From Planctomycetota bacterium (GTDB lineage Bacteria > Planctomycetota > PLA2 > JAEUHO01): a DNA stretch of 64,000 nt. Both the position numbers and the translations under genes were made by a program. Positions 29,665-47,988 of the stretch are shown here, piece after piece (the stretch's first letter is position 1; the number at the start of each line of letters is the position of its first letter). The notes beneath the pieces were generated by a model, which was not told the origin of the DNA, did not search any database, and worked only from the letters and a program-made list of their open reading frames with translations. The DNA lies in NCBI GenBank assembly GCA_029259775.1, contig JAJDEN010000056.1:8917-72916 (forward strand), read 5' to 3'.

Positions 29665-29721
29665 CGGGTCCGATCCTAGCTTCGGGACAACCAGCGGGAC
29701 GGCGGTATCCTCCGAGGCGTC

Positions 29722-30144
29722 ATGGCACTCTTCGAGAAGCACCCCCCGAGGATCCTCTTCCGCGCGGTCATCCTGATCGGCTGCGCGGCCCTTTTGCTGG
29801 GCGTCACGGGCATCTTCTACTTCGGCGTCCCCGGGCGCGAGACCCCGCCGGACCCTGCCAACGACTCGGCCGTGGTGCTCCTGGGCCTCGAGAACCCGGC
29901 GCGTGTCCACGTGCAGGCGACGTGGACGGCCGACGATGGCTCGGGTACCTCGGAGCTCGGCCGACGCGGACTGGACCCCATGACCTGGCACTTCACGAAC
30001 GCCCCGGAGGGCGTGGCCCTGACCATCGAGGTCTACCGCTTCGAAGGCGGCAAGCGGAGCGTCCTGAGGCAGCAGCGAGCCGTCCTCACGCGCGGTGCGG
30101 GCTTCCAGGTCAGCGTGGACGACACCGAGCGCGCGGGCGGCTAG
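29722..30144 (+). CDS. Hypothetical membrane-anchored protein
   Basis: GAGG RBS, N-terminal TM helix. Confidence 0.55.
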   Translation: MALFEKHPPRILFRAVILIGCAALLLGVTGIFYFGVPGRETPPDPANDSAVVLLGLENPARVHVQATWTADDGSGTSELGRRGLDPMTWHFTNAPEGVALTIEVYRFEGGKRSVLRQQRAVLTRGAGFQVSVDDTERAGG

Positions 30145-30312
30145 CGCCTGGCCACAGGGAGCGGCGCCCATCCGTTCCAGGATGCGACGCGCCTCCGAGA
30201 CGACGGCCGCATCGCTGTCGGCCGCTGCCCCGCACCGGGCGCGGGCCGTGTCGTTCTCACCGCTCCGACGGTCGCGCCGCGGCCGAGGTTTCGCGCGTAG
30301 GCTCTGCTCACG

Positions 30313-31251
30313 ATGTTCCTGCCCTTCGTCCTCGCTGAAGCGCCCTTCCCGTGGGCGGGCGAGATCAGCGCGGCCATGAGCGCCCTCCTCTGGGGCTCCT
30401 CGGGTGTCGTCATCGCGCTCATCCGCCCCCCGCTCTCTGCGGCGGCCATCAACCTCGGCAAAAACGCCGTCGCGACGCTCTGCTTCGTCATCGCGCTCTG
30501 GTGCTGGACGGGCTCGCCGATGCCGCAAGGCATGGACGCGCACGCGTTCTGGATCTTCTGCGCCAGCGGGTTCCTGGGACTCGCCGTCTGCGACACGTTC
30601 CTCATGCGCAGCCTGCTCGACATCGGGCCCCAGCGCATGACGCTCGTGTTCCTCATCGTTCCGGTGCTGACAGGCCTCGCCGCCATGCTGCCGCCATTCC
30701 GCGAGATGCCGCCCCTGCTCGCCTGGGCCGGCATGGGCGTGTGTCTCATCGGCATCACGCTGGCCGTACTGCGTCGCGGCGATGGATCGATCGAGCCAGC
30801 GCGCTACCGCCGGGGTGTGCGCAACGCCGCGATCGCCGCCGTGTTCCAGGCGGCGGCCCTGCTGCTGGCGCGCTACGGACTGAACGTGGACGAAGCGCCG
30901 GTGCTCGAGACATCCGTCGTTCGCATGGCGGCCGGCACGTTCGGGCTGGCGCTGATGGGCCTGTTCATCGGACGGCTGGACGTGTGGACTGGCGAGCTGC
31001 GTCGGAAGAAGGCCGCGCTGATGCTGTTCGCGGCGGCGTTCTTCGGCACGTTCATCGGCATCCTGACGAACCAGTTCGGCATGGCCTGGTCCGTGCACAC
31101 CGGCGTCGCCACCACCCTGAACTCGCTCATGCCCATCTACCTCATGCCGCTCTCCGTGCTGTTCCTGCAGGAGAAGTTCGGCAAGCAGGAGGTCCTGGCG
31201 ACGTTGATCTCGATTGCGGGCGTGGCCTTGATGATGCTGGGGTCGGGGTAG
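30313..31251 (+). CDS. DMT/EamA family transporter
   Basis: About 10 TM segments; SGFLGLAVCDTFLM..IGP, FLQEKF motifs. Confidence 0.88.
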   Translation: MFLPFVLAEAPFPWAGEISAAMSALLWGSSGVVIALIRPPLSAAAINLGKNAVATLCFVIALWCWTGSPMPQGMDAHAFWIFCASGFLGLAVCDTFLMRSLLDIGPQRMTLVFLIVPVLTGLAAMLPPFREMPPLLAWAGMGVCLIGITLAVLRRGDGSIEPARYRRGVRNAAIAAVFQAAALLLARYGLNVDEAPVLETSVVRMAAGTFGLALMGLFIGRLDVWTGELRRKKAALMLFAAAFFGTFIGILTNQFGMAWSVHTGVATTLNSLMPIYLMPLSVLFLQEKFGKQEVLATLISIAGVALMMLGSG

Positions 31252-31274
31252 CGCGCAGGAAGGTCCTGCGCGGA

Positions 31275-31625
31275 TCAGTCCACGTCCATGCGCTTGCGCA
31301 GCTCGACCAGCCGATCGCCCAATTCCGCCTTCCAGACCGGCGCCTTGCGCTCGAGCTTCGCGACGGCCCGGTGCGCCGCGGCCTCGAGCGACACGTCGAA
31401 GCGATCGCAGACCTCGGCCAGGGCGATCAGCACATCGCCGACCTCGTCCTCCAGGGCATCGGCGTCGCGCTTGCCGTAGTACTCGCCGTCGAGCACGCAG
31501 CGCATCACCTCCCCCACCTCCTCGGCCAGCGCCAACGCCGCGCCCACGCGGGGATGCTCGATGCCGACGGTCAGCTCGCGGATCCTCTCCTGCAGTGCCG
31601 CGATCTCCATGCGTATCTCCTCCAA
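31275..31625 (-). CDS. MazG-like nucleotide pyrophosphohydrolase
   Basis: LAEEVGEV and LEDEVGDVL motifs. Confidence 0.88.
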   Translation of the reverse strand: MEEIRMEIAALQERIRELTVGIEHPRVGAALALAEEVGEVMRCVLDGEYYGKRDADALEDEVGDVLIALAEVCDRFDVSLEAAAHRAVAKLERKAPVWKAELGDRLVELRKRMDVD

Positions 31626-31637
31626 GGGGTGGGCGTG

Positions 31638-33164
31638 TCAGCGTCGGGGGGCGAGCGTCAGCTCGCGGAAGGTGATGATCCGGACCCCCGCCTTGGCGAG
31701 CGCCTCCGCCAAGGGCGGCTCGAGCACGGCGCGTGCCTCGGCGGCACGGTCCAGCGTGCCTTGCTCCCCCGACGGCACGTCGTCCGCGCCGACCGCCGGA
31801 TGACCGACGACCTCGATCGTGCGGCCGCGGGCCCAGGCGGGGACACGGCGCGCGGCCGCCCAGCGTGCCGCTTCGCGCGCATCCACCCAGCCATCCGGAA
31901 CCGCCAGGCCGTGACCCCGAGCGACGCCGGCCGAGAGGGTCGCCAGCGCCCGCAGCACGAGCCGCTTGGCCCCCTCCACGGCCCCGCGGCCACGGACGGG
32001 CCCGAGAGGACGCAGGCTGCGCACCGCGAGCAGACCGGCGCCGACGAAGCGCCGGCAGAGCGCGCGGCGCACCCACGGCAGGCACCAGGCATGGCGGTGC
32101 GCGTCCACATGCGTCGGCTCGACCCCGAGCGCACGCAGCGCGGCGACCTGCGAGGTCAGGACGTCCGCGCCGCTCCGCCCGAGCATCGAGGCCAACGTGA
32201 AACGACCCAGGGAACCGGCGTCGAGCAGGTCGAGATGCAGACCCACGTCCGTGCCGGGGGCGCGGGCCGCCAGGGCGTGTACACCCTCTCGCACACGCGG
32301 ACCCGTGGTGAGGACCGAGACCGATGTGAGGCCGCCGCCCGCGGCGCCGCGCAGGAGCCCTTCGTCGATCGAGGCGCTCAGGCCCAGGTCGTCGCCGCTC
32401 ACGATCATCGACGTGACGGGCACGATCGGGTGACGCGCGCGTCCGTAGGCCGCCAAGCCGCGGTCTTGGGCGAAGATGCGCAGCGTGTCGAAGCCGGCCT
32501 GCAGCGCGCCGCGCCAGCCCACGCGGGACGCACGATCGGACGGCCGCACATGCACGGGCCCCGTCACGCACGGATGGCCGGCGCGATGGGCGAGCAGGAC
32601 CAGCTCGAGATCCCACGCGAAGCGGCGCGAGCGCAGGCGCGGGACGAGTGCGTCGGCGACCTCGCGCCGCAACGCCTTGAGGCCGGTTTGCGTATCGCGC
32701 AAGGGCAGCCGGAAGCAGAGGGCGGTCACGAGGTGGTAGAGGCGCGAGAGCAGGCGCCGCCCCGGCGGCCACTCGAGGCTCGCTTCGGGGTGGTACTTGC
32801 TCCCGACAGCGACGTCGGCGCCCTCGCGCTCGAGACGCTCGACCAACGGGATCACGTCTTCCGGCGGAATCTCGAGATCGGCGTCCAGCAGGACGATCAC
32901 GTCCTCTCGCGCCGCCGCACACCCTGTGGCCAGGGCGCGCCCCTTGCCCTCGTTGCGCTCGTGGACCAGCACGCGCACGCGGGCGTCCGTAGAAGCGACG
33001 GCGCGCGCGGCCTCGCCGGTGCCGTCGCGGCTGCCGTCGTCTACGACCAGCACCTCGAACGACCGGCCGGAGGTCTCGAGGCAGGCCATCAGGCGCTTCA
33101 GGTTGGCGGCGAGATGCGAGGCTTCGTCGTAGGCGGGCAGGACGATCGAGAGACCGGCGCTCAC
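31638..33164 (-). CDS. GT2 (DPM1-like) glycosyltransferase fused to a ChbG/HpnK (YdjC) deacetylase domain
   Basis: N-terminal IVLPAYDE, VDDGSRDGT, GKGRA, LDAD, DTQTGLK; C-terminal DDLGL, DVGLHLDL, THVDAHRH, EVVGHP. Confidence 0.85.
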   Translation of the reverse strand: MSAGLSIVLPAYDEASHLAANLKRLMACLETSGRSFEVLVVDDGSRDGTGEAARAVASTDARVRVLVHERNEGKGRALATGCAAAREDVIVLLDADLEIPPEDVIPLVERLEREGADVAVGSKYHPEASLEWPPGRRLLSRLYHLVTALCFRLPLRDTQTGLKALRREVADALVPRLRSRRFAWDLELVLLAHRAGHPCVTGPVHVRPSDRASRVGWRGALQAGFDTLRIFAQDRGLAAYGRARHPIVPVTSMIVSGDDLGLSASIDEGLLRGAAGGGLTSVSVLTTGPRVREGVHALAARAPGTDVGLHLDLLDAGSLGRFTLASMLGRSGADVLTSQVAALRALGVEPTHVDAHRHAWCLPWVRRALCRRFVGAGLLAVRSLRPLGPVRGRGAVEGAKRLVLRALATLSAGVARGHGLAVPDGWVDAREAARWAAARRVPAWARGRTIEVVGHPAVGADDVPSGEQGTLDRAAEARAVLEPPLAEALAKAGVRIITFRELTLAPRR

Positions 33165-33787
33165 GCGGCGCCACCCGGACGCGCGTAGACGATCAGGATG
33201 CCCTCGGCCACCGGCTGCGCGATGTCCGGCAGCACGTCCAAGCCGGCATGCCGAGCCGCGGCGGCGCCCGCTTGGCGCTCCGCTGCCGTCACGGTGGCAC
33301 GCTTCCAATGCACGAGCCGACCGCCGTCGGCCAAGAGCGGCGCTGCCAGGGCCGTGGCGTCGGCCAGCGAGCCAACGGCGCGGACCGTGACGAGGTCGGC
33401 CCCCCGCAGCAGGTCCGGCGCCTCGTTCTTGATCTCCCGCGCGTCGCATCCGATCGCTCGCGCGTTGTCGATGCCGGCCTCGAGGAGGCAGGCGGCGATG
33501 GCGCGCGCCTTCTTCTGGCGCCGCTCCACCAGCACGACACGGCAGCCCGGCCAGAGCGTGGCGACGGCAACGCCGGGGAAGCCGTTGCCGCTGCCCAGGT
33601 CGACCGCCACGCGCGGCGGATCGACGAGGTCCCAGGCGACGGCCACGCCCAGCGAGGGCACCACCAGGATCTCGTGGGCCTGCTCGGTCGTCTGCGCGGC
33701 CGTCAGGTTGATCTGGCGGTTCGTCGCGAGCAGGGCCTGGGTGTAGGCCACCAGGCGTTCCGGGAGGGGCGGCGACAAATTGCTCAC
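33161..33787 (-). CDS. rsmG: 16S rRNA (guanine527-N7) methyltransferase
   Basis: NRQINLTA, DLGSGNGFPG, VERRQKK, DLVTVRAV. Confidence 0.88.
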   Translation of the reverse strand: MSNLSPPLPERLVAYTQALLATNRQINLTAAQTTEQAHEILVVPSLGVAVAWDLVDPPRVAVDLGSGNGFPGVAVATLWPGCRVVLVERRQKKARAIAACLLEAGIDNARAIGCDAREIKNEAPDLLRGADLVTVRAVGSLADATALAAPLLADGGRLVHWKRATVTAAERQAGAAAARHAGLDVLPDIAQPVAEGILIVYARPGGAA

Positions 33788-36179: not shown

Positions 36180-37184
36180 TCAGAGATCGCGGGGGCTGGC
36201 GATCACGGTGCCCGCCTGCACGCCGACCACGCCCTTGCCGCCCGGCGTTTCGACCACGAGGTGCATCCACACACGGCGCGAACCGCTGATGCCGACGATT
36301 TTCACCTCGAAGCCATCGGGGGCCCACACCGTGGGATCGTCGTTGGTCATGAGGCTTCGCCGGTGGAAGTCGGCCTTGTTGGTCCGCGCGAGCTGCACGT
36401 TGCCGTGGAGCAGGCGGCCACCGGTGCTCTCGTCCATGTCCTCGTCGATCAGCATCGACGTGCTGGGACTGGCGGAGAGGGTGCCCAGTCCGTCCATGAG
36501 GAAGAAGGCGGCGTCCACGGGTTCGTTCGGGTCCCAGGTGTGGTCGATACCGAACCGGTTGACGAGGTCCGCTGCGACACTGCGACGCTCGTCATCGTCC
36601 AGGATCTCGAGCAGCTGCGCATGGTTGGCGAAGCGCACGCTGCGCCACACGATGAGATCGCGCGCGGTCTTGATGGGCGGGTCCAAGATCAGGCGCCGCG
36701 TCGTGGCGCGCGGATAGACGCAGACGAAGCGGTAGAGATCGATGTGACGCGTGGCCCCCGTCGCCGGGTCGGCCACCGCGGGTGCCGCGGCGGCTTCGCG
36801 CACGAAGAGCAGGGCGTTGCCCGTGTGCGGATCGTCCTTGGCGTCGGGTGCGAGCGGATTGATCTCGTCGATGTGCGGCAGCCGCGCCGACGGCACGATC
36901 GGGTTGCGCGTCAGGTCCAGGGCGTCGAGGTAGGCCAGCCCGATGGCGTCGCCGCCGAAGAGCTTGTGGCTCGAGTTCACCTCGTCGAGCAGTTCGTAGG
37001 TGATGCGCTCGCCGCGTTCCGTCACACGGCGTACGGCGTCGAGCCGCCGCTCGGCGCGGCGCGTGGCCTCGATCGTGCCCTCCATGATGAGGACCATGAT
37101 CGTGAGGAGGCCCACGGTCACCACGACCTCGAACATCGTGAATCCGCCTTGGGCGGCGCGCGGCAGCTCTCTAGCGGTTGACAT
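36180..37184 (-). CDS. Prepilin-type (PilW/GspJ-like) protein
   Basis: Class III signal G|FTMFEVVVTVGLLTIMVL with E5. Confidence 0.8.
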   Translation of the reverse strand: MSTARELPRAAQGGFTMFEVVVTVGLLTIMVLIMEGTIEATRRAERRLDAVRRVTERGERITYELLDEVNSSHKLFGGDAIGLAYLDALDLTRNPIVPSARLPHIDEINPLAPDAKDDPHTGNALLFVREAAAAPAVADPATGATRHIDLYRFVCVYPRATTRRLILDPPIKTARDLIVWRSVRFANHAQLLEILDDDERRSVAADLVNRFGIDHTWDPNEPVDAAFFLMDGLGTLSASPSTSMLIDEDMDESTGGRLLHGNVQLARTNKADFHRRSLMTNDDPTVWAPDGFEVKIVGISGSRRVWMHLVVETPGGKGVVGVQAGTVIASPRDL

Positions 37185-40100
37185 AGATCTTCTCCATGTG
37201 CTGCGCGTAGTGAAGCGACTCGTCCACGCGGAACGTCTCGATGCGGATCAGGTAGGAGCCCTCCGGGAAGCGGTCCTTCGGAACCGCCCAGCTGAACGTC
37301 TCGTTCCCGCCTGCGGTGAGATCGAGCACGGTGCGGGCCGGATCGGGTCCCACACCCTCGATCCACGGGAGATGGCCCGGCTGAATGGACGCGTCGTCAC
37401 GCATGCTCAGCCAGGTCTTGCCGTTGTCCGTGGAGTACATCGGCACGTAGACGAGGTCGCTCTCGGCCTGGGCGAATCCGGCCGCGTACGAACGCGTATA
37501 GGGCTTGCCGTCCCAGCGCCGCCACTCGATGCGCCACTGCACGTCGATCGTCGAGGGGTCCTCGAGCTCGGTGATCAGCGTTGGACTGAGGACTTCCACG
37601 CGCGGGAGCTGCGTGATGCGGTTGGGCGAGCCAGGCAGCCCGCCGCCGAAGTAGCTGTGGACGAGGGAGAGCATGCTGTAGCGCGCGATGAACGAGGAGC
37701 CGGACTCCGTCGTGCGGTCGATGCCGTTGATCACGATGTAGCCGCCGCGCGGATTCGCGCCCGGCTCCTGCAGGCGTACCAGCCCGCTGCCGATGAGCGA
37801 GCCGTTGTCGTGGTCGTAGTAGCGCCGCACGAGCTGCGCGCTGTAGCGCGGGTACGCATCGGTGAAGTTGAACTCATCGCCCAGGCCGCCCGACCAGTTC
37901 GACGCCAGCTGGAACGGGCGACTCACCATCGTGGTGGTCGGGAGCGGGAAGTTGTACTCCTCGGACAGCTCCGGACCATCCTCCACCAGCGAGCCCTCGT
38001 GGCCCGACTGGTACTGGTGGTGGTACGTCGCCGCGCTCGTTCCGATGTTGAAGAACGACGTCGAGCCTTCGGCGTTGGTGCGCGACTCGCTCCTGCGCAT
38101 CGTCGTACCCAGTGGCTGCTGCGTACCAGTGATGCCGTCCTTGCGTACGAGGTGGAACTCGCCCGCGGCCGTGCCCGTGTTCGCCCGCAGATTGCCCCAC
38201 GGTTTCCACTGCGTGCCGTAGGTCGCGTCGGGACAGAGCTCGCCCATCCAGGGCTTCGACCACCAGTAGCCGCCCGATCGGATCCCGGCGCTGGTGCCGG
38301 TGTTGGTCCGCGCCAGCTTGCGGCTGCCGCGCAAGGTGCTGGTGCCGCCGCCGCCGGTGATCGTGTTCTCGTACACGTCGCCCGCGAGTCCGAAGGGCTT
38401 GCCGTCCATCGGGATGCTGTTGCTGTAGCCGTTCGCGCTGTCGTAGCCGACATCGCCGCCGAGCGACAGGTAGTAGAACGAGAAGCCGGTCTGGGCGTTC
38501 CAAAGCGCCTCGCTCTTGGTGATGGCCTGACGCAGCCACTGGAAGATGCGCCCGACGTCGTGGTCGGCGCGGCCGCGCCAGTGATCGCGCAAGCGGCCGG
38601 CGTCGAAGGCGAGCCACTGGTTCTGGAAGTTGCCCGAGCCGTCCGAGAAGTTGTCCCAGTACCAGTTGTAGCCGTGGGCCGCCGTGGTGCCGGTGGCGTC
38701 GAGGTCGGCGTAAGGGCAGTGACGCGGGTCGCCGTTCATCTGATGACGCTCGCTGAACGGCACCTTCTCGGGGTCGCCGTAGAACCAGGTGAACGTGCGC
38801 GACAGGTTGCGCGGCTCGTTGCGCGCAGGCCACAGGGTGCCCGCGGCGAGGTCGTGACCGAGACGCGTCTCCACGGCAATCACGCGGTCGACGCCGTCGC
38901 CGTCGTTGGCGCCCGGCGCGGAGGCGAGCGCACTTCGCAGGGCCGGTGTCGGCAGGGTGATCCGCCAACGCGCGGTGTTCTTGGGCGCGCTGCCGTTCCA
39001 GGCAAGGTCGCGGGTGAAGCGGTTCGTGTCGCCGGCGGTGCCGGGCGTCGGGCAGGGCACGTGGTCGAGGTCATAGAGACGGTAGGCGGACGGCAAGCCG
39101 CGACCGCTCAGCTCGGGCGCCTCGAGCGGCGTGCCGTGCAACTCCAGCACCGTGCGGTTGGTCGCGGCTTCGAAGCGGATCCCGTACCACATCTCGCCGC
39201 GCTCGAAGCCGCCGTCCCGCACGCCGTCCTGATCTGCGTCGAAGAAGGTCTCGGCTGGATCCCAGGTGCTGTCGCCGTCCATGTCCAGGAAGGGCTCGCC
39301 GAAGTTGGCCACGTAGGCGTCTTCCGCGGCCGTGCTGCCGAAGTCGAGCGGATTCCAGGGCTGCCACGCGGGCGGCGTCGCGGTGGTCGGGCCGTCGCGC
39401 ACGCCGTTGCCGTTCCGGTCCCAGTAGGGTTCCGCCGGGTCCCAGCTGCCGTTCGCGTTGCCGTCGTTGAACGGCTCCGCGGGCCGCGCCGGATCGAAGG
39501 TCGCGTCGCCGTCCAGATCGGTCAAGGCCTCCGTCGTCGTGCCGTACGCGCCGTCGCCGTCACGCTCCTGATACGGGTCGTGCGCGTCCTTCGCGCCGTT
39601 GCCGTCCAGGTCGAAGTAGGTCTCGGCGAGCTGACGGATGCCGTCGCCATTTCCATCGCCGAAGATCTCGGGGTAGCGCGGCGCCGCATGCAACGCCTGG
39701 TAGGCGTCACCGGCCCCGCTGCCGTCGGTGTCGATGCCGCCGGGCAGCCGCTCGATGACGATCGACGGGTTCGATGCCGCGTTCGGCGCACCGCTGTGAT
39801 CGGCACCTGGCAGGACGAGCGTGGCCGGGAGCCCCGCGTCGCGCACACCGTTGCCGTTCCAGTCCTGGTAGGCCTCGCCGGCGTCGTAGCTTCCGCTGCC
39901 ATTGACGTCGAGGAACGGTTCCTCTTGCGTCATCAAGACCTCGGCACCGGACGTACCCGCGAATGCGGTCTTGTAGGCGTGCACGCGGAAGCGTGGTGCG
40001 ATCGATGCGGCGTCGTTGCCGGCCACACGGGTCGGCGCGATGCGCTCGGGGTGCGTCACGACCCGCCAGCCCGGCTTGGCCTCGGGCAGGGCCGCGGCGT

Positions 40101-41292
40101 CGCTGTAGTTGCGCGCGGGCGGCATCGGCAGCAACTCACCGTGCAGGTTGACGATGAGCGCATTGTGGTAGCGGTCCGGATCGAGCACCATCCGGTCCAG
40201 CAGCAGGCGCCACGTCGGCGTATCGTCCGTCGCCAGGCCCGCCGCAACGCGCGCCTCGTGACGCGCGACGGCCTCCGGATACCGCATGCAGTGGTTGTTC
40301 ATGTCCGCTAGCGCGTAGGGCATCTCGTTGCCGGCGTCCCAACTCCCGTCGCCGTCGCCGTCGTCGAAGGGCTCGCCCGGGTCACGCACGCCATTGCTAT
40401 TCGTGTCGGTGAAGGTCTCTTGCGCGGCCCACCCGCCGGCGAACGCGGGCGTCGTCACGCCGTCGAGGTTCATGCGGGCGCGCATGCGCTCGGGTACGTA
40501 GTAGCGCTCCGAGGCCATCCCGTCCGGCATGCGACCCGGGTAGCAGTAGGCCCACGGCGTGTCTTCGCGGCTGTCGCGTGCCTCGTTGGTGTAGGGCGCG
40601 TACTCCTCGTCGCGCCCGTAGCCCAGGGTCGTGACCCAGTGGGTCCGGAAGCGCAGGCCGGGGTTGCGTCCCTCGAGATCGGTCAGCGTCGCCTCGATGA
40701 ACGGCTGGATCGCGTCCATGAAGACCCACCAGCCCGGCACGTTCTCGCACGCGACCAGGTAGACGTCGTAGACCTGCGTGGTCGGGAACGCATCCCCAAT
40801 CGTTCGGATGACCGAGCTCATCTGGGCCATCTGCTCTCCGGGCAGCGTGTCGGCCGGCCGCATGCGGAAGACCTTGACGGTCGTGATGCGCAGATCGCGC
40901 TGTGCCGCGCCGGGGAACGGCCGCACGGAAATCTGGCGGTACCAACGCCACTCGCCCTTGTCGCGTGTGTTGCCCGAGATCACGTTGCCGGGCGGCAGGT
41001 AGGCGCCAGGGTCGGAGGGATCGGGCTGGATCGTGAGCGACGGCTCGTAGCCCAGCCCGTCATCGAACCCATCGAGGTCGGCTGCGACCTCGCTTTCGCC
41101 GCCTTCGACGAATGCGCGCAGCTCCGCGAGGATCGAGAGCGCACGCTGGCGCGCGAACACCTTGTCACGTACCCAATCCGTGTGCTGGGTACCGCGCGTG
41201 ATGTAGGCGACACCCGCCATCGCGGCGACGGCGAGGAGCACCACGGCGATCAGGACCTCGAGCAGGCCGAAGCCGCGCATGCGGTGCATCAT
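37171..41292 (-). CDS. Giant prepilin-type (PilV/GspI-like N-terminus) protein, 1373 aa, with Ca-binding-like DxNGNG repeats
   Basis: RG|FGLLEVLIAVVLLAVAAMAG, followed by many E(P/T)FxDxNGNGxxD repeats. Confidence 0.82.
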   Translation of the reverse strand: MMHRMRGFGLLEVLIAVVLLAVAAMAGVAYITRGTQHTDWVRDKVFARQRALSILAELRAFVEGGESEVAADLDGFDDGLGYEPSLTIQPDPSDPGAYLPPGNVISGNTRDKGEWRWYRQISVRPFPGAAQRDLRITTVKVFRMRPADTLPGEQMAQMSSVIRTIGDAFPTTQVYDVYLVACENVPGWWVFMDAIQPFIEATLTDLEGRNPGLRFRTHWVTTLGYGRDEEYAPYTNEARDSREDTPWAYCYPGRMPDGMASERYYVPERMRARMNLDGVTTPAFAGGWAAQETFTDTNSNGVRDPGEPFDDGDGDGSWDAGNEMPYALADMNNHCMRYPEAVARHEARVAAGLATDDTPTWRLLLDRMVLDPDRYHNALIVNLHGELLPMPPARNYSDAAALPEAKPGWRVVTHPERIAPTRVAGNDAASIAPRFRVHAYKTAFAGTSGAEVLMTQEEPFLDVNGSGSYDAGEAYQDWNGNGVRDAGLPATLVLPGADHSGAPNAASNPSIVIERLPGGIDTDGSGAGDAYQALHAAPRYPEIFGDGNGDGIRQLAETYFDLDGNGAKDAHDPYQERDGDGAYGTTTEALTDLDGDATFDPARPAEPFNDGNANGSWDPAEPYWDRNGNGVRDGPTTATPPAWQPWNPLDFGSTAAEDAYVANFGEPFLDMDGDSTWDPAETFFDADQDGVRDGGFERGEMWYGIRFEAATNRTVLELHGTPLEAPELSGRGLPSAYRLYDLDHVPCPTPGTAGDTNRFTRDLAWNGSAPKNTARWRITLPTPALRSALASAPGANDGDGVDRVIAVETRLGHDLAAGTLWPARNEPRNLSRTFTWFYGDPEKVPFSERHQMNGDPRHCPYADLDATGTTAAHGYNWYWDNFSDGSGNFQNQWLAFDAGRLRDHWRGRADHDVGRIFQWLRQAITKSEALWNAQTGFSFYYLSLGGDVGYDSANGYSNSIPMDGKPFGLAGDVYENTITGGGGTSTLRGSRKLARTNTGTSAGIRSGGYWWSKPWMGELCPDATYGTQWKPWGNLRANTGTAAGEFHLVRKDGITGTQQPLGTTMRRSESRTNAEGSTSFFNIGTSAATYHHQYQSGHEGSLVEDGPELSEEYNFPLPTTTMVSRPFQLASNWSGGLGDEFNFTDAYPRYSAQLVRRYYDHDNGSLIGSGLVRLQEPGANPRGGYIVINGIDRTTESGSSFIARYSMLSLVHSYFGGGLPGSPNRITQLPRVEVLSPTLITELEDPSTIDVQWRIEWRRWDGKPYTRSYAAGFAQAESDLVYVPMYSTDNGKTWLSMRDDASIQPGHLPWIEGVGPDPARTVLDLTAGGNETFSWAVPKDRFPEGSYLIRIETFRVDESLHYAQHMEKIYVNR

Positions 41293-42581
41293 TCCCCACC
41301 TCCCGTCACGATCGCATCGACACGATTGGCGAGGGGAAAGACCGCCTTGCTGCGCCGGTACGTGCCCATGCGGGTGAGCAGGTCATCGACGATGCCGCCG
41401 TCGTACTCGATCTCGGCGAAGTCGCCGCCGGCGCCGCGCACGTCGATGTAGCTCTGTCCGATGAAGATGCCGCGCAGGTAGCAGGGGCCGTTGATCTCGA
41501 GACGGCCGCTGCACCACAGCATGCCGTTGAAGAAGGAGTTCGAGCCGCTGGCGATCGTGCAGGTGCCCTTGACGATGACGATGCCCGTGCCGCGGAGCGG
41601 GCGATCCTTGTCGAAGACGACGTTGCCCTCGATCACCGTGAGCGTGTACTCCCCGAGATTGCCGGGCAGCACGCTGGCATCGGTGACGGCGGCGTCGGCC
41701 ATGCCCTTGAGGTCAGACAGGGTCACGCCGAAGACGCCCTTGAGCCCGCTGCGCCAGCCCGGCACGGATGTGGTCGCGGGCGCGCCGTCGACCTCGCTCT
41801 CCGCTTGGAGCGTCGGTGTGCCGTTGCTCGGATGGTGGGCGATGCCGACCGCGCTGCCGCCACGAATGCGGGCTCGAGCGCCGATGGTCACCCGGGAGCC
41901 ACGTTTCGCGCAGATGGCCGCGGCAGCCGGCGTGGTGAGAGCGAGCCGGCGAAGCTCGGTGGCGACGGCGTTGGACGCGATACGCCAGTTGGCGCCCTCG
42001 CCCAGGGGCAGATCCGCGCGCGGCCGGCGGTAGAGGAAGCCATGGCTCTCGACCAGCCACACGGCGCCGCCGGCGGTCTGACCGCGGTGGCTCGACACAT
42101 CCTGGACGCCGGCGGCCGGGTCCCAGGCTCCGTTGTCGTTGCTGTCAGTGAACGGTTCCGAGCCGTCGTGGAAGCCGTTGCCGTTCACATCGGTGAAGGG
42201 TTCGGCCGGCGTGGCGATGCGCACCTCGTAGCGTGCCCACACGCCGGGCGTGACCTCGTACTCACGCACGAGACCGACATCGGGGTCCATGGTCTCGTTG
42301 ATGGGCGGGTTCGCCGCGAGGTCCAGCCGGGGCGCGAACGTCGTCACGGGCTGCACGTTCTGGCGGCGGAACCACGAGAGCGCTTCGGCGACGCCGGCGA
42401 GTGCGATCTCGCGCGCTCGGACCGGTGCGGTCGCACCGCTCTCAGAGCCCTTGTCGAGCGCGAGGCTCGATTGGGTGCCCGACGCGATCATCGCGCCCAG
42501 CAGGAGCACACTGACGACGGCCACGAGCATCGCGAATCCGCGCTCTTGAGCGCGCGGTCGTACGGTGGAACGGGGGAGCAT
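41289..42581 (-). CDS. Prepilin-type (PilX/GspK-like) protein lacking E5
   Basis: ERG|FAMLVAVVSVLLL, AREIALAGVAEA (PilX-N-like), two EPFTDxNxNG repeats, beta-helix-like C-terminus (GTGIVIVKG, FNGMLW). Confidence 0.8.
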   Translation of the reverse strand: MLPRSTVRPRAQERGFAMLVAVVSVLLLGAMIASGTQSSLALDKGSESGATAPVRAREIALAGVAEALSWFRRQNVQPVTTFAPRLDLAANPPINETMDPDVGLVREYEVTPGVWARYEVRIATPAEPFTDVNGNGFHDGSEPFTDSNDNGAWDPAAGVQDVSSHRGQTAGGAVWLVESHGFLYRRPRADLPLGEGANWRIASNAVATELRRLALTTPAAAAICAKRGSRVTIGARARIRGGSAVGIAHHPSNGTPTLQAESEVDGAPATTSVPGWRSGLKGVFGVTLSDLKGMADAAVTDASVLPGNLGEYTLTVIEGNVVFDKDRPLRGTGIVIVKGTCTIASGSNSFFNGMLWCSGRLEINGPCYLRGIFIGQSYIDVRGAGGDFAEIEYDGGIVDDLLTRMGTYRRSKAVFPLANRVDAIVTGGGE

Positions 42582-42723
42582 GTGAGGTTCCGGGGCCTAC
42601 CCGTCACCACGTCCGACATCATCTCAGCGGCTGCGTACTGGGGAACACGGAGCCGCGCGTCTTATCGTCGTCAGGCCGCGATCGAGTGAGGTCAATCCCG
42701 CAGCGTGAACTTCTTGCAGGTAC

Positions 42724-43077
42724 TCAGTTGCCAGCCGTGCGCTTGGCCTCGGCGCGCGCCTTGCGGCGCGCTTCCTTGTCAGCGCGGATCTTGAGGAGGA
42801 GGCGGTCGATCAGCGCATCGGCTTCACGCTGACGTGCGACGTGATGCGCCGACGTCATGGGGATCGCGCGGTCCGGCTGGGCCGCGGCGGGCTGCGTTGC
42901 CGGCCGCACCATCCCCGGCTGGAAGAGGGTGTCGTCGGGGATGGGTCCATCGAGGGGCAGGCTGCCGTCCGAAGCGTCCGCGGCGGCGCCGGCTGCATCG
43001 CCGGAGGTGACGTTGAGGGCGGCGAGCACGACGCCGGTGAGGAAGAGGACGCAAACGATGATCCACACGCGCGCCAT
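42724..43077 (-). CDS. Small membrane-anchored hypothetical protein
   Basis: MARVWIIVCVLFLTGVVLAAL hydrophobic N-terminus; lies upstream of and co-oriented with the prepilin cluster. Confidence 0.5.
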   Translation of the reverse strand: MARVWIIVCVLFLTGVVLAALNVTSGDAAGAAADASDGSLPLDGPIPDDTLFQPGMVRPATQPAAAQPDRAIPMTSAHHVARQREADALIDRLLLKIRADKEARRKARAEAKRTAGN

Positions 43078-43410
43078 CCCGCGACGGCCGGCGTGAGGCG
43101 AGTGCGGTGTTGCGCGGGCACAGCGATCGGGGCGCCGGACTTTCCCAAGCCCGGCAGGGGCGGTCGGAGACACGGGGTCGTCCTTTCCCCACCACGTGTG
43201 CCCTTTCGTCGGGCCCGGGCGCGGGCTGAAGCAGATAGCCCCCCGATGTTCACGGGTGAGACAGGAAGGACTTTGGACCCTGTCTCAGTCCGCCCCGTGC
43301 CCAAAGGCTCGGGAGGGCCGCCGCGGGATCCCAAACGGAGGGAAACCCGCTGCTAGCCTTCGCACGTCATAGGAGGCAGACCCTCACTCGCCTCCCCTAG
43401 GAGAACTCAC

Positions 43411-44691
43411 GTGCACCGACCGATGTTGCGGGCCCTCAAGCTGGGCGCGATCGTCGCCGGCTTGATGCTGGCCACCCCTGCCGCCCCCGTCCTCGCCGAA
43501 GACGGCCCTGGACCCGCCGAAGACGGCCCTGGACCCGCCGCGACCGGCATCGCCTGGGTCAAGGGCTGGGAAGCCGGCCGCGCCCAGGCGAAGAAGGACG
43601 GCAAGCTGATGTTCGTCTACTTCGGCCGCTACTCACCGAAGTGACCCCCCTGCGAGATGCTGGAGAACCGTGTGTTCTCCCAGGACGGCTCGGCCGCCCT
43701 CAGCGACAAGTTCACCGCCGTGAAGCTGCTCGGCGGCAACGACCTCGACGACGAAGGCAAGGCCTTCATGAAGCGCTACGGCGTTGGCGGTTACCCGACA
43801 CTGCTCGCGATGACGCCCGATGGCGCCGTCGTCAGCCGGAGCTTCGGTGACCGCACGCTCGAGGGCATCGTCGGCTCGATGGTCGCTGCCGTTACGGCGG
43901 ACGGCGAGTTCAGGGCCAAGGAGGCCGACTTGGCCAGCAAGACGGACGCGGCCAGCGTTCGTGAGATGGCCGGCCTCTACAAGGCTCGCTCGCAGCTGGA
44001 CAAGGCGCGCACGCGCTACGAGAAGCTCACGGCCGAGAAGCCGTCCGTCGAGGACCAGGAGAACCTCCTCGAGGTCGTCTCCAGCCTCGGCGACAGCGCC
44101 GCCCGGAAGGGCCTGCTGGCAACGCTCGTCGGCACGCGCAGCGACCACGCCAAGCACATCGAGTGGCGCACCGAGCTCGCCATGGTCGACGTGCCCACGC
44201 AGGTCACGAGCCGCGCGGAGTGGAACGACGTGATGGGCAAGCGCAAGGCGGCCCTCACCGCCCTGCTTCCGGAGGTCGAGAAGGTCGCCGACCAGGCGCA
44301 CGTCCGCGGGATCCTCGCAGACATCGCGGCCAACACAGGCGATCGTGACGCGGCCGGCGCGCACTGGGACTGGATCCTCGAGAAGGCCCCGGACAGCAAG
44401 GCCGCCGCCGGCGCCTTGTGGATGAAGAGCAACGACCTCATCCGCCAGGGCCGCTTCGAGAGCGACGCCACGAAGCTGAAGGACGCCAAGGCCCTCTGGG
44501 GGCAGTTGGTCAAGGACCACGCGACCAGCCCCGGTGGCCAGCGCGCCAAGCAGTTCATGGGCCAGCTCGACGGCATGATCGCGGCCCTCGAGCTCAAGCA
44601 GGCCGAAGCCGCAGAGAAGAAGCTCAAGCAGGCCGAAGCCGAAGAGAAGAAGAAGGGCGAGCCCCTGAAGCCGCGCGACGACGGCAACTAG
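43411..44691 (+). CDS. Exported thioredoxin-like (UxxC) + TPR-like selenoprotein; in-frame TGA 43642-43644 (426 aa, U78)
   Basis: ORFs 43411-43644 and 43657-44691 share a frame and read IAWVKGWEAGRAQAKKDGKLMFVYFGRYSPK-TGA-PPCEMLENRVF. Thioredoxin fold continues (KFTAVKL, YGVGGYPTLL cis-Pro, PDG). AGGAG RBS before the GTG start. Confidence 0.9.
43495..43536 (+). repeat. 21-nt perfect tandem duplication (AEDGPGP x2) after the signal peptide
   Basis: gccgaagacggccctggaccc twice. Confidence 0.9.
43660..43683 (+). promoter_or_regulatory. Putative bacterial SECIS hairpin of the thioredoxin-like gene
   Basis: CTGGAGAAC-CGTGT-GTTCTCC(C)AG; loop begins 24 nt after the TGA with G at the second loop position. 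Confidence 0.7.
44591..44652 (+). repeat. 30-nt near-perfect tandem duplication (LKQAEAxEKK x2) at the C-terminus
   Basis: agctcaagcaggccgaagccg(c/a)agagaaga at 44591 and 44621. Confidence 0.85.
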
Positions 44692-44733
44692 ACCCTGTCC
44701 AAGAAGCTTCCAGCAGGCCAGTTCCGACAGGCC

Positions 44734-44768
44734 AACACCCCCGGCGCTTCGCGCGCCGGGGGTGTTTT
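44734..44768 (+). terminator. Rho-independent terminator
   Basis: AACACCCCCGGCGC-ttcgc-GCGCCGGGGGTGTT followed by TT, shortly after the stop. Confidence 0.8.
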
Positions 44769-45147
44769 CGTGCGTGGTCCATGCCTGCTCGTTTTCCTTC
44801 GGCAACAACGGGGCGAACGCACCACAGCGGAATGAATTGCATCGGGCTTGGGATCACCGTCCCGGGACGCACGACCTGCTTCGCAGCGCCCAATTCGACC
44901 GACGCGAACAGGGCCTTTCGGAGCGTGGTTTTGGCCCTTGAACAAGCCTTGGCGCCCCCCCTTCCCGCGCTAATCTCCGGCTGGGCCTAGCTACAAAAAC
45001 AGGGCGCTCCGCGCGGAAACCGCGGGGCGTCTTCTGTACACATCTGGACGGAGCCGACCGATGTCGATCTCACGCACGACGACGACCCGCAGAAGAAGCC
45101 GCAAAGGCTTCTCGACAACCAGCCGAGGGAACCGCCGAGACGCATGC

Positions 45148-47988
45148 ATGCGGTTCAGCGTCACCTTCCTCCTCGCCCTCGCCTTGGGCGTGGGTCTCGC
45201 CGCCTGTGGCGGCGGCGGTGGTGGCGGCGGTGTGGGGCAGGGCCTCGTGCTGCTGAGCTTCTCGCAGGATTCGGTCGACAACGCGCCGCTCAACTCCACG
45301 CTCGAGTTCGAGTTCTCCGAAGCGGTCGATCCGAGCACGATCACGAGCGCGGCCATCCAGATCCGCGAAGGCCCCTCCTTCGGCGCCTCCATCCCTGGCC
45401 TGTTCCGGATCCTCGGCGCACGCGTGATCTGGGAGCCGCAGCTTCCCGGTCTCTGCGACAACTCGGATGCCGCGCTGAAGCCCAACACGCGCTACCGCGT
45501 CTCGGTCATCGGCTTCCCGGAGGAGTTCTCGCTCCGCAATACCGTCGGCGAGCCGCTCAGCAACACCCAGACCTACGAGTTCAACACACGTCTGGACTCG
45601 GACCCCGACAAGTTCATCGATCAGCAGCCCGGGAGCGCGCCCTTCGTAGCCTCCGCGTCGCCGGCCAACGGTGACGAGGCCGTCGCCGTCACGGCGGGCA
45701 ACCAGGTCGTGCTCACGATGAGCGAAAACCTCGACCCCTGCACCGTCAACGACGCCAACGTGCTCTTCCACATCTACCAACTCGGTGATCCGAACACGTC
45801 CGTCGCAGCCAATGGTGGATTGGGCCTCCCCTCCGGCTTCGCGACCGATGCCACACAGGACACCGGCGACCAGGCACCCGGCGATCCCTTCACGTGGACG
45901 ACCGCGGGGCAGCAGGCGTTGGTCAACACGCTGCCGACGCCCCAGAAGATCCTCGCGCAGATCCAGCTCGAGCAGAACTTCGCGAGCACGAAGATCACGA
46001 TCACGCCGGAATTCGGCTTCAACGCCGACCCGCTCAAGAACGCGCCGCTCTTCCCCGAGAACGCCCTCATCGTGGTCCAGGTCTCGTTCAACGTCTCGGA
46101 CTTCGGCGGCAACCCGTTGACGCCGTTCACGATGGCGTTCACGACCGAGAACCGTCCGGCAACGAACAGCACGTACCTGCTGGACAACGAGGGTGAGACG
46201 CCCTACCGCGGCGACGTCACGACCGCGGAGGTGCACGAACCTCGCGCGCCCAGCAAGGTGCAGGGCTTCCTGCTCTTCGCCGGCGACAGCGACAACGGCC
46301 CCGACCCGTTGACGCCCACACTGCCCGAAGACAACTTCGGCACGTGCACCACGCCGCGGCAGGTCAATGACGGCATCCCGGACGACTTCGACCCGGTCGT
46401 GGACGTGGTCCTCGACACGGGCGCGACGCGCAACCTGTGCCCCAACACCACCGACGGTTCGCTGGCGGTCATCTGGGAGTTCCGCACCTTCCGCATCCGC
46501 AACGGCATCACGGTGCGCGTGGTCGGCAACAACCCGGCGATCATCCTCGTCCAGGGTGACGCCATCATCGAGCAGGGCGGCCTGCTGCTGCTCCGCAGCG
46601 ACGGCACCGCGGGCACCCCCACAGGCAACGGCGCCAAGGGCCACGACGACACCACGTCAGGCAACCCGCCCGACGCGGCCGGTGGCCGCGGTGTAGCGGG
46701 CGGCGGCAACGGAGGCGAAGGCACCGCCGCGCCCATCAACAGCGGGCTGAAGAAGGGCCAGGACGGCTTCGACGGCTACGGCACGGGCACGACGGACGGT
46801 CACGGCGACGCGGCGATCCCCGGCGGCCCCGGCGCCGGCGAGGGTGGCTCGGGCGTCGACGCGACCAACTCCAGCAACCCCTGGCCGAGCGGCTCCTCGG
46901 GCGCGGGTGGTGGCGGCGGCCACGCCGCCGCAGGTACGGACGGCCCCCAGGCCATCGGTGCCGGCACCGTCCTCCTGGTCGCTGGGGTCGGCAAGGGTGG
47001 CGAGATCACGCCGAACCGCCGTGACGCCGAGACGATGCCGACCCCGTCCGCCGGTGGCGGCGGTGGTGGCGCGGGCTACAGCGTCGAGCCCCCCGGCACG
47101 TTCAAGACGGGCGGTGGCGGTGCGGGTGCCGGTGGCGGCTTCGTCGATATCACCTCGTCGGGCGACATCACCATCAACGGCACGATCGACGCCTCGGGCA
47201 GCCGCGGCGGCAACGGCGGCAACGAGTCGTTCCACGGCGGTGGCGGTGGCGGCGGCGGCGCCGGTGGCGGCATCCGTCTCCTCTCGCCAAACTCGATCGT
47301 CCTCGGTGGCGGTGCGGTGGTCACGACGTCCGGCGGCACAGGCGGCAGCGGCAACCGCGGCTCGTCGAGCACGGTCGGTCCGATCAACAACGGCGGCAAC
47401 GGCGGCTTCGGCCGCGTCGTCATGGAAGACAGCGACTCGATCATCACGGGCATCGGCGCCGCGACGGTCACGCCCAGCGAGGGCACGCTCGGCTTCTTCC
47501 GCGGCATCTTCGATGCCAGCCGGTTCAAGGGTGGCGGACTCAACCCCCAGGGCATCACCGAGATCTTCGGTGTGGGTCCACTCAACCCCGACTTCCAGAT
47601 CCCGGTCGCTGCTGACTTCGTCGCCGGCGTGCCGGTCGTCGCCTCGCGCGGTGTCGGTCTGACCAGCATCCTGGTCGAGGTGCAGGGCTTCCAGATGCAG
47701 GCCGACGGCCTGCCGGACATGGGCTCCGCCACCGGCTGGTGGACGGCCTGCCGCTTCGTCGACTCCGGCGTCGAGGGTTCGCCCACGCTCGTCTACACGA
47801 ATCCTCCGAACAACGCGAGCGACCCCGTCGCCGCGCCTTCGGACAACGTGGGGACGGGCATGGATGCGATCGACGGGAGCGAGTTCATCCAGTTGCGCAT
47901 CAGCTTCTGGCTGCCGAACACCGTCGGTCCGTTCGACGCGGGCCCGTTCGTCAACGACTGGACGATCCGCTTCTCGCACAACCAGTAG
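45148..47988 (+). CDS. Large surface lipoprotein with Ig-like (Big_5-type) domains and a glycine-rich region
   Basis: Lipobox GLAAC+GGGG, FEFSEAVDPSTI, LKPNTRYRV, SPANG..LTMSENLD, long GGGGG(A/G)GG tracts. Confidence 0.8.
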   Translation: MRFSVTFLLALALGVGLAACGGGGGGGGVGQGLVLLSFSQDSVDNAPLNSTLEFEFSEAVDPSTITSAAIQIREGPSFGASIPGLFRILGARVIWEPQLPGLCDNSDAALKPNTRYRVSVIGFPEEFSLRNTVGEPLSNTQTYEFNTRLDSDPDKFIDQQPGSAPFVASASPANGDEAVAVTAGNQVVLTMSENLDPCTVNDANVLFHIYQLGDPNTSVAANGGLGLPSGFATDATQDTGDQAPGDPFTWTTAGQQALVNTLPTPQKILAQIQLEQNFASTKITITPEFGFNADPLKNAPLFPENALIVVQVSFNVSDFGGNPLTPFTMAFTTENRPATNSTYLLDNEGETPYRGDVTTAEVHEPRAPSKVQGFLLFAGDSDNGPDPLTPTLPEDNFGTCTTPRQVNDGIPDDFDPVVDVVLDTGATRNLCPNTTDGSLAVIWEFRTFRIRNGITVRVVGNNPAIILVQGDAIIEQGGLLLLRSDGTAGTPTGNGAKGHDDTTSGNPPDAAGGRGVAGGGNGGEGTAAPINSGLKKGQDGFDGYGTGTTDGHGDAAIPGGPGAGEGGSGVDATNSSNPWPSGSSGAGGGGGHAAAGTDGPQAIGAGTVLLVAGVGKGGEITPNRRDAETMPTPSAGGGGGGAGYSVEPPGTFKTGGGGAGAGGGFVDITSSGDITINGTIDASGSRGGNGGNESFHGGGGGGGGAGGGIRLLSPNSIVLGGGAVVTTSGGTGGSGNRGSSSTVGPINNGGNGGFGRVVMEDSDSIITGIGAATVTPSEGTLGFFRGIFDASRFKGGGLNPQGITEIFGVGPLNPDFQIPVAADFVAGVPVVASRGVGLTSILVEVQGFQMQADGLPDMGSATGWWTACRFVDSGVEGSPTLVYTNPPNNASDPVAAPSDNVGTGMDAIDGSEFIQLRISFWLPNTVGPFDAGPFVNDWTIRFSHNQ

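Follow-up and report, generated by a model that had tools for sequence, protein, structure and literature searches.

A predicted exported UxxC selenoprotein joining a thioredoxin fold to TPR-like helices in Planctomycetota

A 64,000-nucleotide stretch of a Planctomycetota genome (assembly GCA_029259775.1, contig JAJDEN010000056.1, forward-strand positions 8,917 to 72,916; hereafter the window, with positions counted from its first letter) carries a gene that open reading frame (ORF) calling breaks in two: a 77-aa ORF with a GTG start and a TGA end (43411–43644) is followed in the same frame by a 344-aa ORF (43657–44691). Reading the TGA as selenocysteine (Sec, U) joins the pair into one frame of 426 residues, in which U78 lies within the motif S-P-K-U-P-P-C and C81 is the sole cysteine of the protein. 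A preliminary description of this DNA, made from its letters, had proposed the split frame, a signal peptide, a duplicated AEDGPGP linker, a thioredoxin-like domain bearing U-P-P-C, a hairpin downstream of the TGA, a helical-repeat C-terminus and a terminator of its own, and each of these features was recovered (Table 1).

Table 1. Features of the candidate selenoprotein gene and its surroundings, with positions in the window
Feature	Position	Strand	Basis or remark
Predicted complete selenoprotein gene, 426 codons including Sec, TAG stop	43411–44691	+	Open when TGA is read as U
Shine-Dalgarno-like AGGAG	43399–43403	+	7 nt 5′ of the GTG start
Predicted Sec-type signal peptide, residues 1–29, cut after P-V-L-A	43411–43497	+	Hydropathy profile
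Acidic Pro/Gly linker, AEDGPGP twice, exact 21-nt tandem duplication	43494–43540	+	Tandem Repeats Finder (TRF)
Thioredoxin-fold domain, residues ~48–150	43552–43860	+	Pfam, profile search, model
TGA, predicted selenocysteine U78, N-terminal (attacking) position of UxxC	43642–43644	+	Codon comparison with relatives
TGC, Cys81, predicted resolving cysteine	43651–43653	+	Cys positions; invariant in orthologue alignment
SECIS (selenocysteine insertion sequence)-like hairpin, core stem 43662–43668 × 43674–43680, G-containing apical loop CGUGU	43661–43681	+	
TPR (tetratricopeptide repeat)-like helical-repeat domain, residues ~150–416	43858–44658	+	Model, Foldseek, profile search
Second tandem repeat, period 30, 2.1 copies, 96% matches, charged Lys/Glu/Ala tail	44591–44652	+	
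Intrinsic-terminator-like hairpin, 10-bp GC stem (44738–44762), loop TTCGC, then TGTTTTC	44738–44769	+	
Three divergent pseudopilin-like genes; context, not part of the gene	36180–42581	–	Pfam, N-termini

The N-terminal leader has a basic start and a hydrophobic core (maximum of 2.42 in an 11-residue Kyte-Doolittle window), and its P-V-L-A end is followed by EDGPGP; the leaders of relatives finish with an AxA-type sequence, followed by acidic residues, or carry a lipobox (LAACG, TTACG, LPGCG). An AAGGAG-type sequence, reading K-E-N-H-H in translation, is kept 5′ of the GTG start in relatives, and orthologues of 405–469 aa can be aligned over the full length. The linker repeat (period 21, 2.2 copies, 100% matches in TRF) is represented in relatives by a single acidic and diverged copy, and the 30-nt repeat near the 3′ end encodes a KQAEAxEKKL tail; the two tandem repeats suggest that both low-complexity ends of the gene have recently slipped. 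A terminator scan of the region recovered only the 5-pair core (44747–44761) of the downstream stem, and a scan for sigma-70 promoters over 42500–45200 returned no sites.

Across 17 Planctomycetota genomes, 20 genes (14 in the window's class and six in other lineages) have TGA at the equivalent site. Four named Planctomycetota contigs from metagenome-assembled genomes carry it. Within the window's class, 15 of 40 genomes gave a match, corresponding at the codon level to 14 distinct TGA genes, two Cys orthologues and one motif-less paralogue. Across the phylum, 14 of 401 sampled genomes matched at E ≤ 1e-25, adding the six TGA genes of other family-level lineages, together with one gene encoding Cys (CPPC) and two encoding Ser or Asn at this position. 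The TGA is retained down to 24–35% protein identity, and cysteine stands at the site in three orthologues: L041 (TGT, CPGC), L038 (TGC, CPAC) and L063 (TGC, CPPC).

All 17 matches from a word-index protein search are 322–350 aa long and start, with MLE.. or VFS.., right after the site; none is full length. An exhaustive profile search (E ≤ 1e-30) yielded 55 representatives of clusters formed at 50% identity, comprising 30 entries that start just past the site, 12 full-length CxxC proteins (CPPC, CPAC, CPGC, CGYC and others), seven full-length proteins with a degenerate motif and six fragments. The 30 late-starting entries were taken as Sec forms because of where they start, the codon itself having been checked in the fetched loci only, and on this basis most family members appear to be Sec forms. 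The 12 full-length representatives, together with the three orthologues identified at the codon level, supply the CxxC homologues that the preliminary description had suggested searching for. Relatives are named ‘hypothetical protein’ or ‘TPR repeat protein’ in the databases, and gene callers split the family at the Sec codon. The full-length members that have lost part or all of the motif (P0040, P0049, P0050, P0052, P0054, P0061 and P0068 among the representatives; L061, L065 and L046 among the loci) show SxxC, NxxC, DxxC, CxxS or none of these, with the TPR-like domain kept. Loss of the attacking residue or of the whole motif from proteins that keep this domain suggests a redox-independent role for it.

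The preliminary description had named three things that could undo a selenocysteine reading, namely a sequencing error, a genome devoid of Sec machinery, and relatives that do not conserve the TGA; the last is answered by the 20 genes above. As for the first, contigs assembled from four sequencing runs, all belonging to a study that may be the source of the window, show no differences over 43300–44800 at a word depth of 10–42. The genome (5.09 Mb in 66 contigs, 92.5% complete) also contains all four components of the machinery that were looked for: tRNA-Sec (70.7 bits, cut-off 47; called SeC with anticodon tca by ARAGORN), selA (501.8 bits, cut-off 267.9), selB (336.7 bits, cut-off 242.25) and selD (349.7 bits, cut-off 125). 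The selD gene, which directly adjoins selA at G000:C57:29656-32009 (L017, L018), has one in-frame TGA, so that SelD is probably a selenoprotein as well. Around the gene under study, TGA terminates seven of 12 ORFs, including Pfam-supported GidB, deoxyhypusine synthase and HI0933-like genes; it is a common stop there, and the code is accordingly not a reassigned one. A reading of TGA as Trp or Gly was likewise rejected, on account of these neighbouring stops and the Cys orthologues.

Downstream of the TGA, at a distance of 17 nt, the transcript can form the hairpin GGAGAAC-CGUGU-GUUCUCC (43662–43680). Excerpts of PMC1088965 describe the bacterial SECIS element as a stem-loop that directly follows the UGA and has a small, G-containing apical loop. 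Such a structure follows the codon in all 20 TGA genes, with a stem of 6–9 bp starting 15–18 nt past the TGA and a G-containing loop of 3–5 nt (CGUGU, GUG, GGU, GGC, GUC or CGGGC). Covariation was assessed in the 15 genes with a common register; five more (G029a/b, G033, G034, G063) have a loop shifted by one base and were left out. In this set 87.4% of cells pair, compared with 41.5–64.4% when the 3′ arm is slid by 1–3 columns; both partners vary in four of nine pairs, a number reached by 1 of 500 shuffles (mean 0.9 after shuffling), and the covariation score is 0.219 against 0.147 in shuffled alignments (0 of 500 as high), although the sequences are related and these statistics therefore overstate their independence. 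In the five genes left out, EGGAL, EGGPL or ERGAL replaces ENRVFS in the protein, and a hairpin (GAGGGC-GGU-GCCCUC, GAGCGC-GGC-GCGCUC or similar) is still found at an equal distance. Codon usage is also constrained: over residues 79–91 of eight Sec orthologues aligned over their full length, all six amino-acid-invariant columns use one codon, as opposed to 4 of 34 such columns elsewhere, and Arg87 is CGT in 8 of 8, although few Arg codons are CGT (3 of 24 within the gene itself). Taken across relatives, the sequences indicate that a hairpin 15–18 nt 3′ of the UGA is conserved with compensatory changes.

Two Pfam models span the TGA, namely Thioredoxin_2 (29.7 bits, cut-off 27; residues 60–137) and Thioredoxin_7 (28.5 bits, cut-off 27; residues 48–136), so that the thioredoxin domain runs through the codon. 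A profile built from an alignment of ten full-length orthologues (A2) found 2kuc_A, a ‘putative disulphide-isomerase’, at E 2.1e-9 and 2lst_A at E 1.3e-6 in the Protein Data Bank (PDB). Positions C78, C81 and P129 are invariant in A2, with P129 lying in a conserved Pro loop, GxPT. The AlphaFold2 model derived from the same alignment (mean predicted local distance difference test, pLDDT, 87.7; predicted template-modelling score, pTM, 0.76) places a strand at 67–72, then U78, then a helix at 79–89, the strand/helix sequence of a thioredoxin fold. Confidence falls below 50 at residues 1–12 and 14–43, which correspond to the signal peptide and linker. Beyond the thioredoxin domain, the model contains 12 helices between residues 150 and 416, mostly with pLDDT above 90, and a tail at 66 and then 56. 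Foldseek related this part to BamD, consensus TPR proteins, the TPR domain of OGT and LapB at E 3e-5 to 3e-4 (TPR matches as a whole at E 3e-5 to 1e-3, TM-scores 0.2–0.43), the orthologue profile likewise matched the OGT TPR (E 3.4e-6), and Pfam TPR models scored 10.9–12 bits, under their cut-offs. For the C-terminal ~265 residues, ‘TPR-like helical repeat’ is a safe name for the modelled structure.

Together, the conserved TGA, the Cys orthologues, the covarying hairpin with its frozen synonymous codons, the Sec machinery, the signal peptides or lipoboxes of relatives and the model uphold the identity proposed in the preliminary description: as far as sequence and predicted structure go, the single gene encodes a selenoprotein that is exported and joins a UxxC thioredoxin fold to TPR-like helices, and the TGA at 43642–43644 is to be read as a selenocysteine codon, not as an error or a stop. 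We consider it very probable, from sequence comparison, that this is a genuine exported UxxC selenoprotein.

UxxC thioredoxin-fold proteins are the commonest predicted kind of bacterial selenoprotein. In the excerpted literature they have long been known as thioredoxin, DsbA-like, DsbG-like and thiol-disulfide isomerase-like proteins (PMC1088965), and the window protein shares with those described there and in excerpts of PMC13188914 the Sec at the first position, the existence of Cys homologues, a SECIS element that directly follows the UGA and a redox role predicted to lie outside the cytoplasm. It matches Pfam PF13098 just above the cut-off and differs from them, as far as these partial descriptions go, by the extra TPR-like ~265 residues at its C-terminus. 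None of the curated NCBIfam selenoprotein models matched at cut-off. The best, NF041199 (20.4 bits against 300), describes a Trx7/PDZ (seleno)protein and thus a comparable plan, in which a Thioredoxin_7-type domain with Sec is fused to a peptide-binding module; the match, however, covers only residues 48–113, the partner in NF041199 is a PDZ domain and not a TPR-like one, no Pfam PDZ match was found here, and the excerpted review lists the motif of that family as CxxU, not UxxC (PMC13188914). The solved protein 2kuc_A, from Bacteroides and belonging to the DsbD gamma/Thioredoxin_7 group, aligns over profile positions 48–164, its CGPC falling on U-PP-C and its GxPT cis-Pro loop in register, but is a single Cys-containing domain of 130 residues with no TPR part. 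On the window protein the NCBIfam DsbD model scored 11.2 bits against a cut-off of 330.

In overall plan, the protein resembles YbbN/CnoX (PDB 3qou, 3qdn), with an N-terminal thioredoxin and a C-terminal TPR domain, to which Foldseek aligned 339–361 columns at E ~1e-4. Unlike YbbN/CnoX, the window protein has Sec in its motif and a predicted signal peptide, and the superposition is poor (TM-scores 0.17–0.28, root-mean-square deviation ~20 Å), with no match at the level of sequence families. CnoX is described in excerpts of PMC10998233 and PMC8129009 as a cytoplasmic holdase, its thioredoxin domain linked to a TPR domain, that works with GroEL/DnaK. The S9 Table of PMC4807772 lists for a planctomycete genome two ‘thiol-disulfide isomerase-like thioredoxin’ selenoprotein candidates with named Cys homologues. 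Like the gene in the window, they are planctomycete, and each is given as two adjacent gene identifiers; they are entered as ‘SECIS present: no’, under IMG gene numbers only and with no TPR term, and the likeness is one of description. The portions of the selenoprotein literature searched contain no mention of TPR or tetratricopeptide, those of the selenocysteine and selenoproteome literature searched do not contain the word ‘Planctomycetota’, and the accessible text of a 2026 review (PMC13188914) has no occurrence of ‘Planctomycet’, ‘TPR’, ‘periplasm’ or ‘signal peptide’.

Two sets of related genes were encountered along the way. A genome of the window's own family carries a paralogue (L048, G008:C7:719476-723129, minus strand) with two in-frame TGAs three codons apart, reading U-P-T-U. 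Its hairpin is that of the window's gene with a compensatory G-C to C-G swap, and it lies in a 2075-aa open frame, after WD40-like repeats and before a helical domain; it may encode a cytoplasmic UxxU fusion protein. The sister family within the class holds a subfamily of 301–344 aa (L043 at G029:C28, L044 in G033, L045 in G034) with a signal peptide, the motif YAP-U-PPC and the hairpin GAGGGC-GGU-GCCCUC, present in two tandem copies in G029. The best NCBIfam match of this subfamily is DsbH (25.1 bits, cut-off 190).

Divergent from the selenoprotein gene, the three pseudopilin-like genes encode proteins of 334 aa (GFTMFE N-terminus), 1373 aa (six Cys; Pfam N_methyl at 21.8 bits, cut-off 21.2) and 430 aa (GFAMLVAV, four Cys), the latter two being 61–79% identical to their counterparts in same-genus relatives. 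An ORF of 149 aa with a hydrophobic stretch near its N-terminus separates the 430-aa gene from the selenoprotein gene. On the other side, a 975-aa ORF (45061–47988, plus strand) shows a lipobox-like LAAC, a Gly run, a Big_5 Ig-like domain and long Gly-rich stretches. Farther off, a 1856-aa ORF (27604–33174, minus strand) has a faint alpha/beta-hydrolase match near its C-terminus (24.5 bits, below cut-off). The preliminary description had offered the pilin cluster and the lipoprotein as possible clients. In eight of the ten genomes of the window's family that have an orthologue, those with Cys forms included, the 430-aa gene lies next to it in divergent orientation; G017 and G026 lack this arrangement. 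None of nine loci from other lineages has a pseudopilin homologue or motif within 1.5 kb. The lipoprotein-like ORF is kept downstream in just one of the ten (G021). The other-lineage loci have no neighbour in common: 18 of their 25 candidate ORFs are without a Pfam match, and the remainder include a response regulator twice and TetR, TPR, kinase, PHO4 and DUF2063 once each. With synteny restricted to one lineage, the proposed clients remain a guess.

Elsewhere, the genome encodes a full-length DsbD (795 aa, with DsbD_N, DsbD_TM at 162.8 bits and a thioredoxin domain), and VKOR and DsbA domains occur in one 468-aa open frame (G000:C7:50070-51383); DsbB was not found in this 92.5%-complete genome. 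We propose, with a probability of about 80%, that the gene product is a periplasmic thiol-disulfide oxidoreductase whose attacking Sec (U78-P-P-C81) is joined to a TPR-like domain. During synthesis, SelB-GTP-Sec-tRNA(Sec) would attach to the hairpin as the ribosome stalls on the UGA, and would insert Sec; the protein would then leave through the Sec translocon and be cut by signal peptidase past residue 29. In the periplasm, the U78 selenolate would attack disulfides (or sulfenates) of exported clients, unfolded or partly folded forms of which the TPR arm may hold, and C81 would resolve the mixed selenenylsulfide. The oxidised U-C pair would most likely be re-reduced by the full-length DsbD, with the VKOR-DsbA frame presumably serving as the usual oxidising route. 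That the enzyme acts specifically as a reductase or isomerase fed by DsbD is a narrower proposal, to which we give even odds.

Several observations weigh against this proposal or parts of it. Both Pfam thioredoxin scores clear their cut-offs barely, and the start codons of the relatives, on which their N-termini depend, were chosen by the analyst and are guesses. The fold energy of the window's hairpin is unexceptional on its own (z = 0.50 for a 91-nt fold of 43630–43720 at 69% GC, with 136 of 200 shuffles at least as stable) and was accordingly given no weight as support, the case being carried by the comparison of relatives; Rfam at its gathering threshold gave no matches in the whole window. 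Because the hairpin overlaps the conserved peptide ENRVFS, part of its conservation is at the protein level. Moreover, partial stems occur in the non-Sec relatives L041 and L038, and stems of 6 bp in L065, 6 bp at another spacing in L063 and 4 bp in L061, so that the hairpin does not cleanly separate Sec from Cys forms. The link to DsbD is one of co-occurrence in a single genome, and the direction of catalysis (reduction, isomerisation, oxidation or sulfenate repair) cannot be read from the sequence.

One alternative holds that the TGA is a real stop, in which case an exported peptide of 77 aa would be made alongside a cytoplasmic TPR protein of 344 aa, or else marks a pseudogene, a sequencing error or a reassigned codon. 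Gene callers do treat it as a stop in the database entries, and within the 344-aa ORF an ATG lies in frame, 12 nt past the TGA. A stop here would nevertheless sever the thioredoxin fold between the strand at 67–72 and the active-site helix; its persistence in distant relatives with Cys codons in three others, the compensatory changes of the hairpin that follows, the freezing of synonymous codons there, the Sec machinery, the agreement of four runs and the regular use of TGA as a stop in neighbouring genes all speak against this alternative, which we regard as highly improbable. A far more serious contender retains the selenoprotein and changes its chemistry to that of a DsbA-like oxidase, a peroxidase or sulfenate reductase that would shield single cysteines as DsbG does, or a CnoX-like, stress-activated holdase or ‘chaperedoxin’; DsbD would then not feed it as a reductase or isomerase. 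Sec speeds thiol-disulfide exchange in either direction. The thioredoxin-plus-TPR plan is that of YbbN/CnoX, and the seven of 55 representatives that lack the first motif residue or the entire motif (SxxC, NxxC, CxxS or none) would fit a family whose TPR or holdase part works without full redox cycling. Against this stand the VKOR-DsbA oxidase that the genome already encodes, the low TM-scores to YbbN, the lack of a match to any CnoX family model and, among solved structures, a closest relative by sequence that is a ‘putative disulphide-isomerase’ of the Thioredoxin_7 type; the Pfam models concerned also recognise the thioredoxin domain of DsbD. We hold such chemistry to be a minority prospect, at well under even odds.

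Rather less credit is due to the idea of a dedicated assembly factor for the neighbouring pseudopilins of a type IV pilus or type II secretion-like system, that is, a TPR ‘pilotin-like’ protein whose selenol centre makes or edits their disulfides. This would account for the adjacent, divergent 430-aa gene in most genomes of the family, both Cys forms included, for pseudopilins with four and six Cys, and for the lipoproteins among the relatives; a Cys orthologue even faintly matches Tgl (15.4 bits, cut-off 225) and PilW (13.6 bits, cut-off 154). Yet these scores are far under their cut-offs, the genes are divergent and not co-transcribed, the selenoprotein gene has its own terminator, and the arrangement is missing from two genomes of the family and from every other-lineage locus, so that conservation in one family may be plain inherited gene order; we deem this explanation improbable. 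Only slightly more plausible, and still unlikely, is a selenium-dependent ‘chaperedoxin’ of the periplasm, matching CnoX but outside the cytoplasm, whose TPR arm would hold unfolded exported proteins, e.g. the giant Cys-bearing pseudopilins, while the selenolate protects or repairs their cysteines. If so, family members without the attacking residue would have become pure holdases.

A periplasmic oxidoreductase with an attacking Sec, as preferred here, would belong to a new family, so far unannotated, that is a variation on the very familiar UxxC theme and is set apart from the listed UxxC families by description. As UxxC proteins are so common, its chemistry is no surprise; what is new is a coherent family of 55 representative clusters, present in 14 of the 401 sampled Planctomycetota genomes, in which an exported redox domain is predicted to be fused to a large TPR-like domain and whose database entries are cut at the Sec codon and named hypothetical. 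A curated model is needed if annotation pipelines are to cease splitting the family. With natural Sec, Cys and motif-less forms of one exported protein, the family would offer a convenient system in which to ask what selenium buys in the oxidising periplasm.

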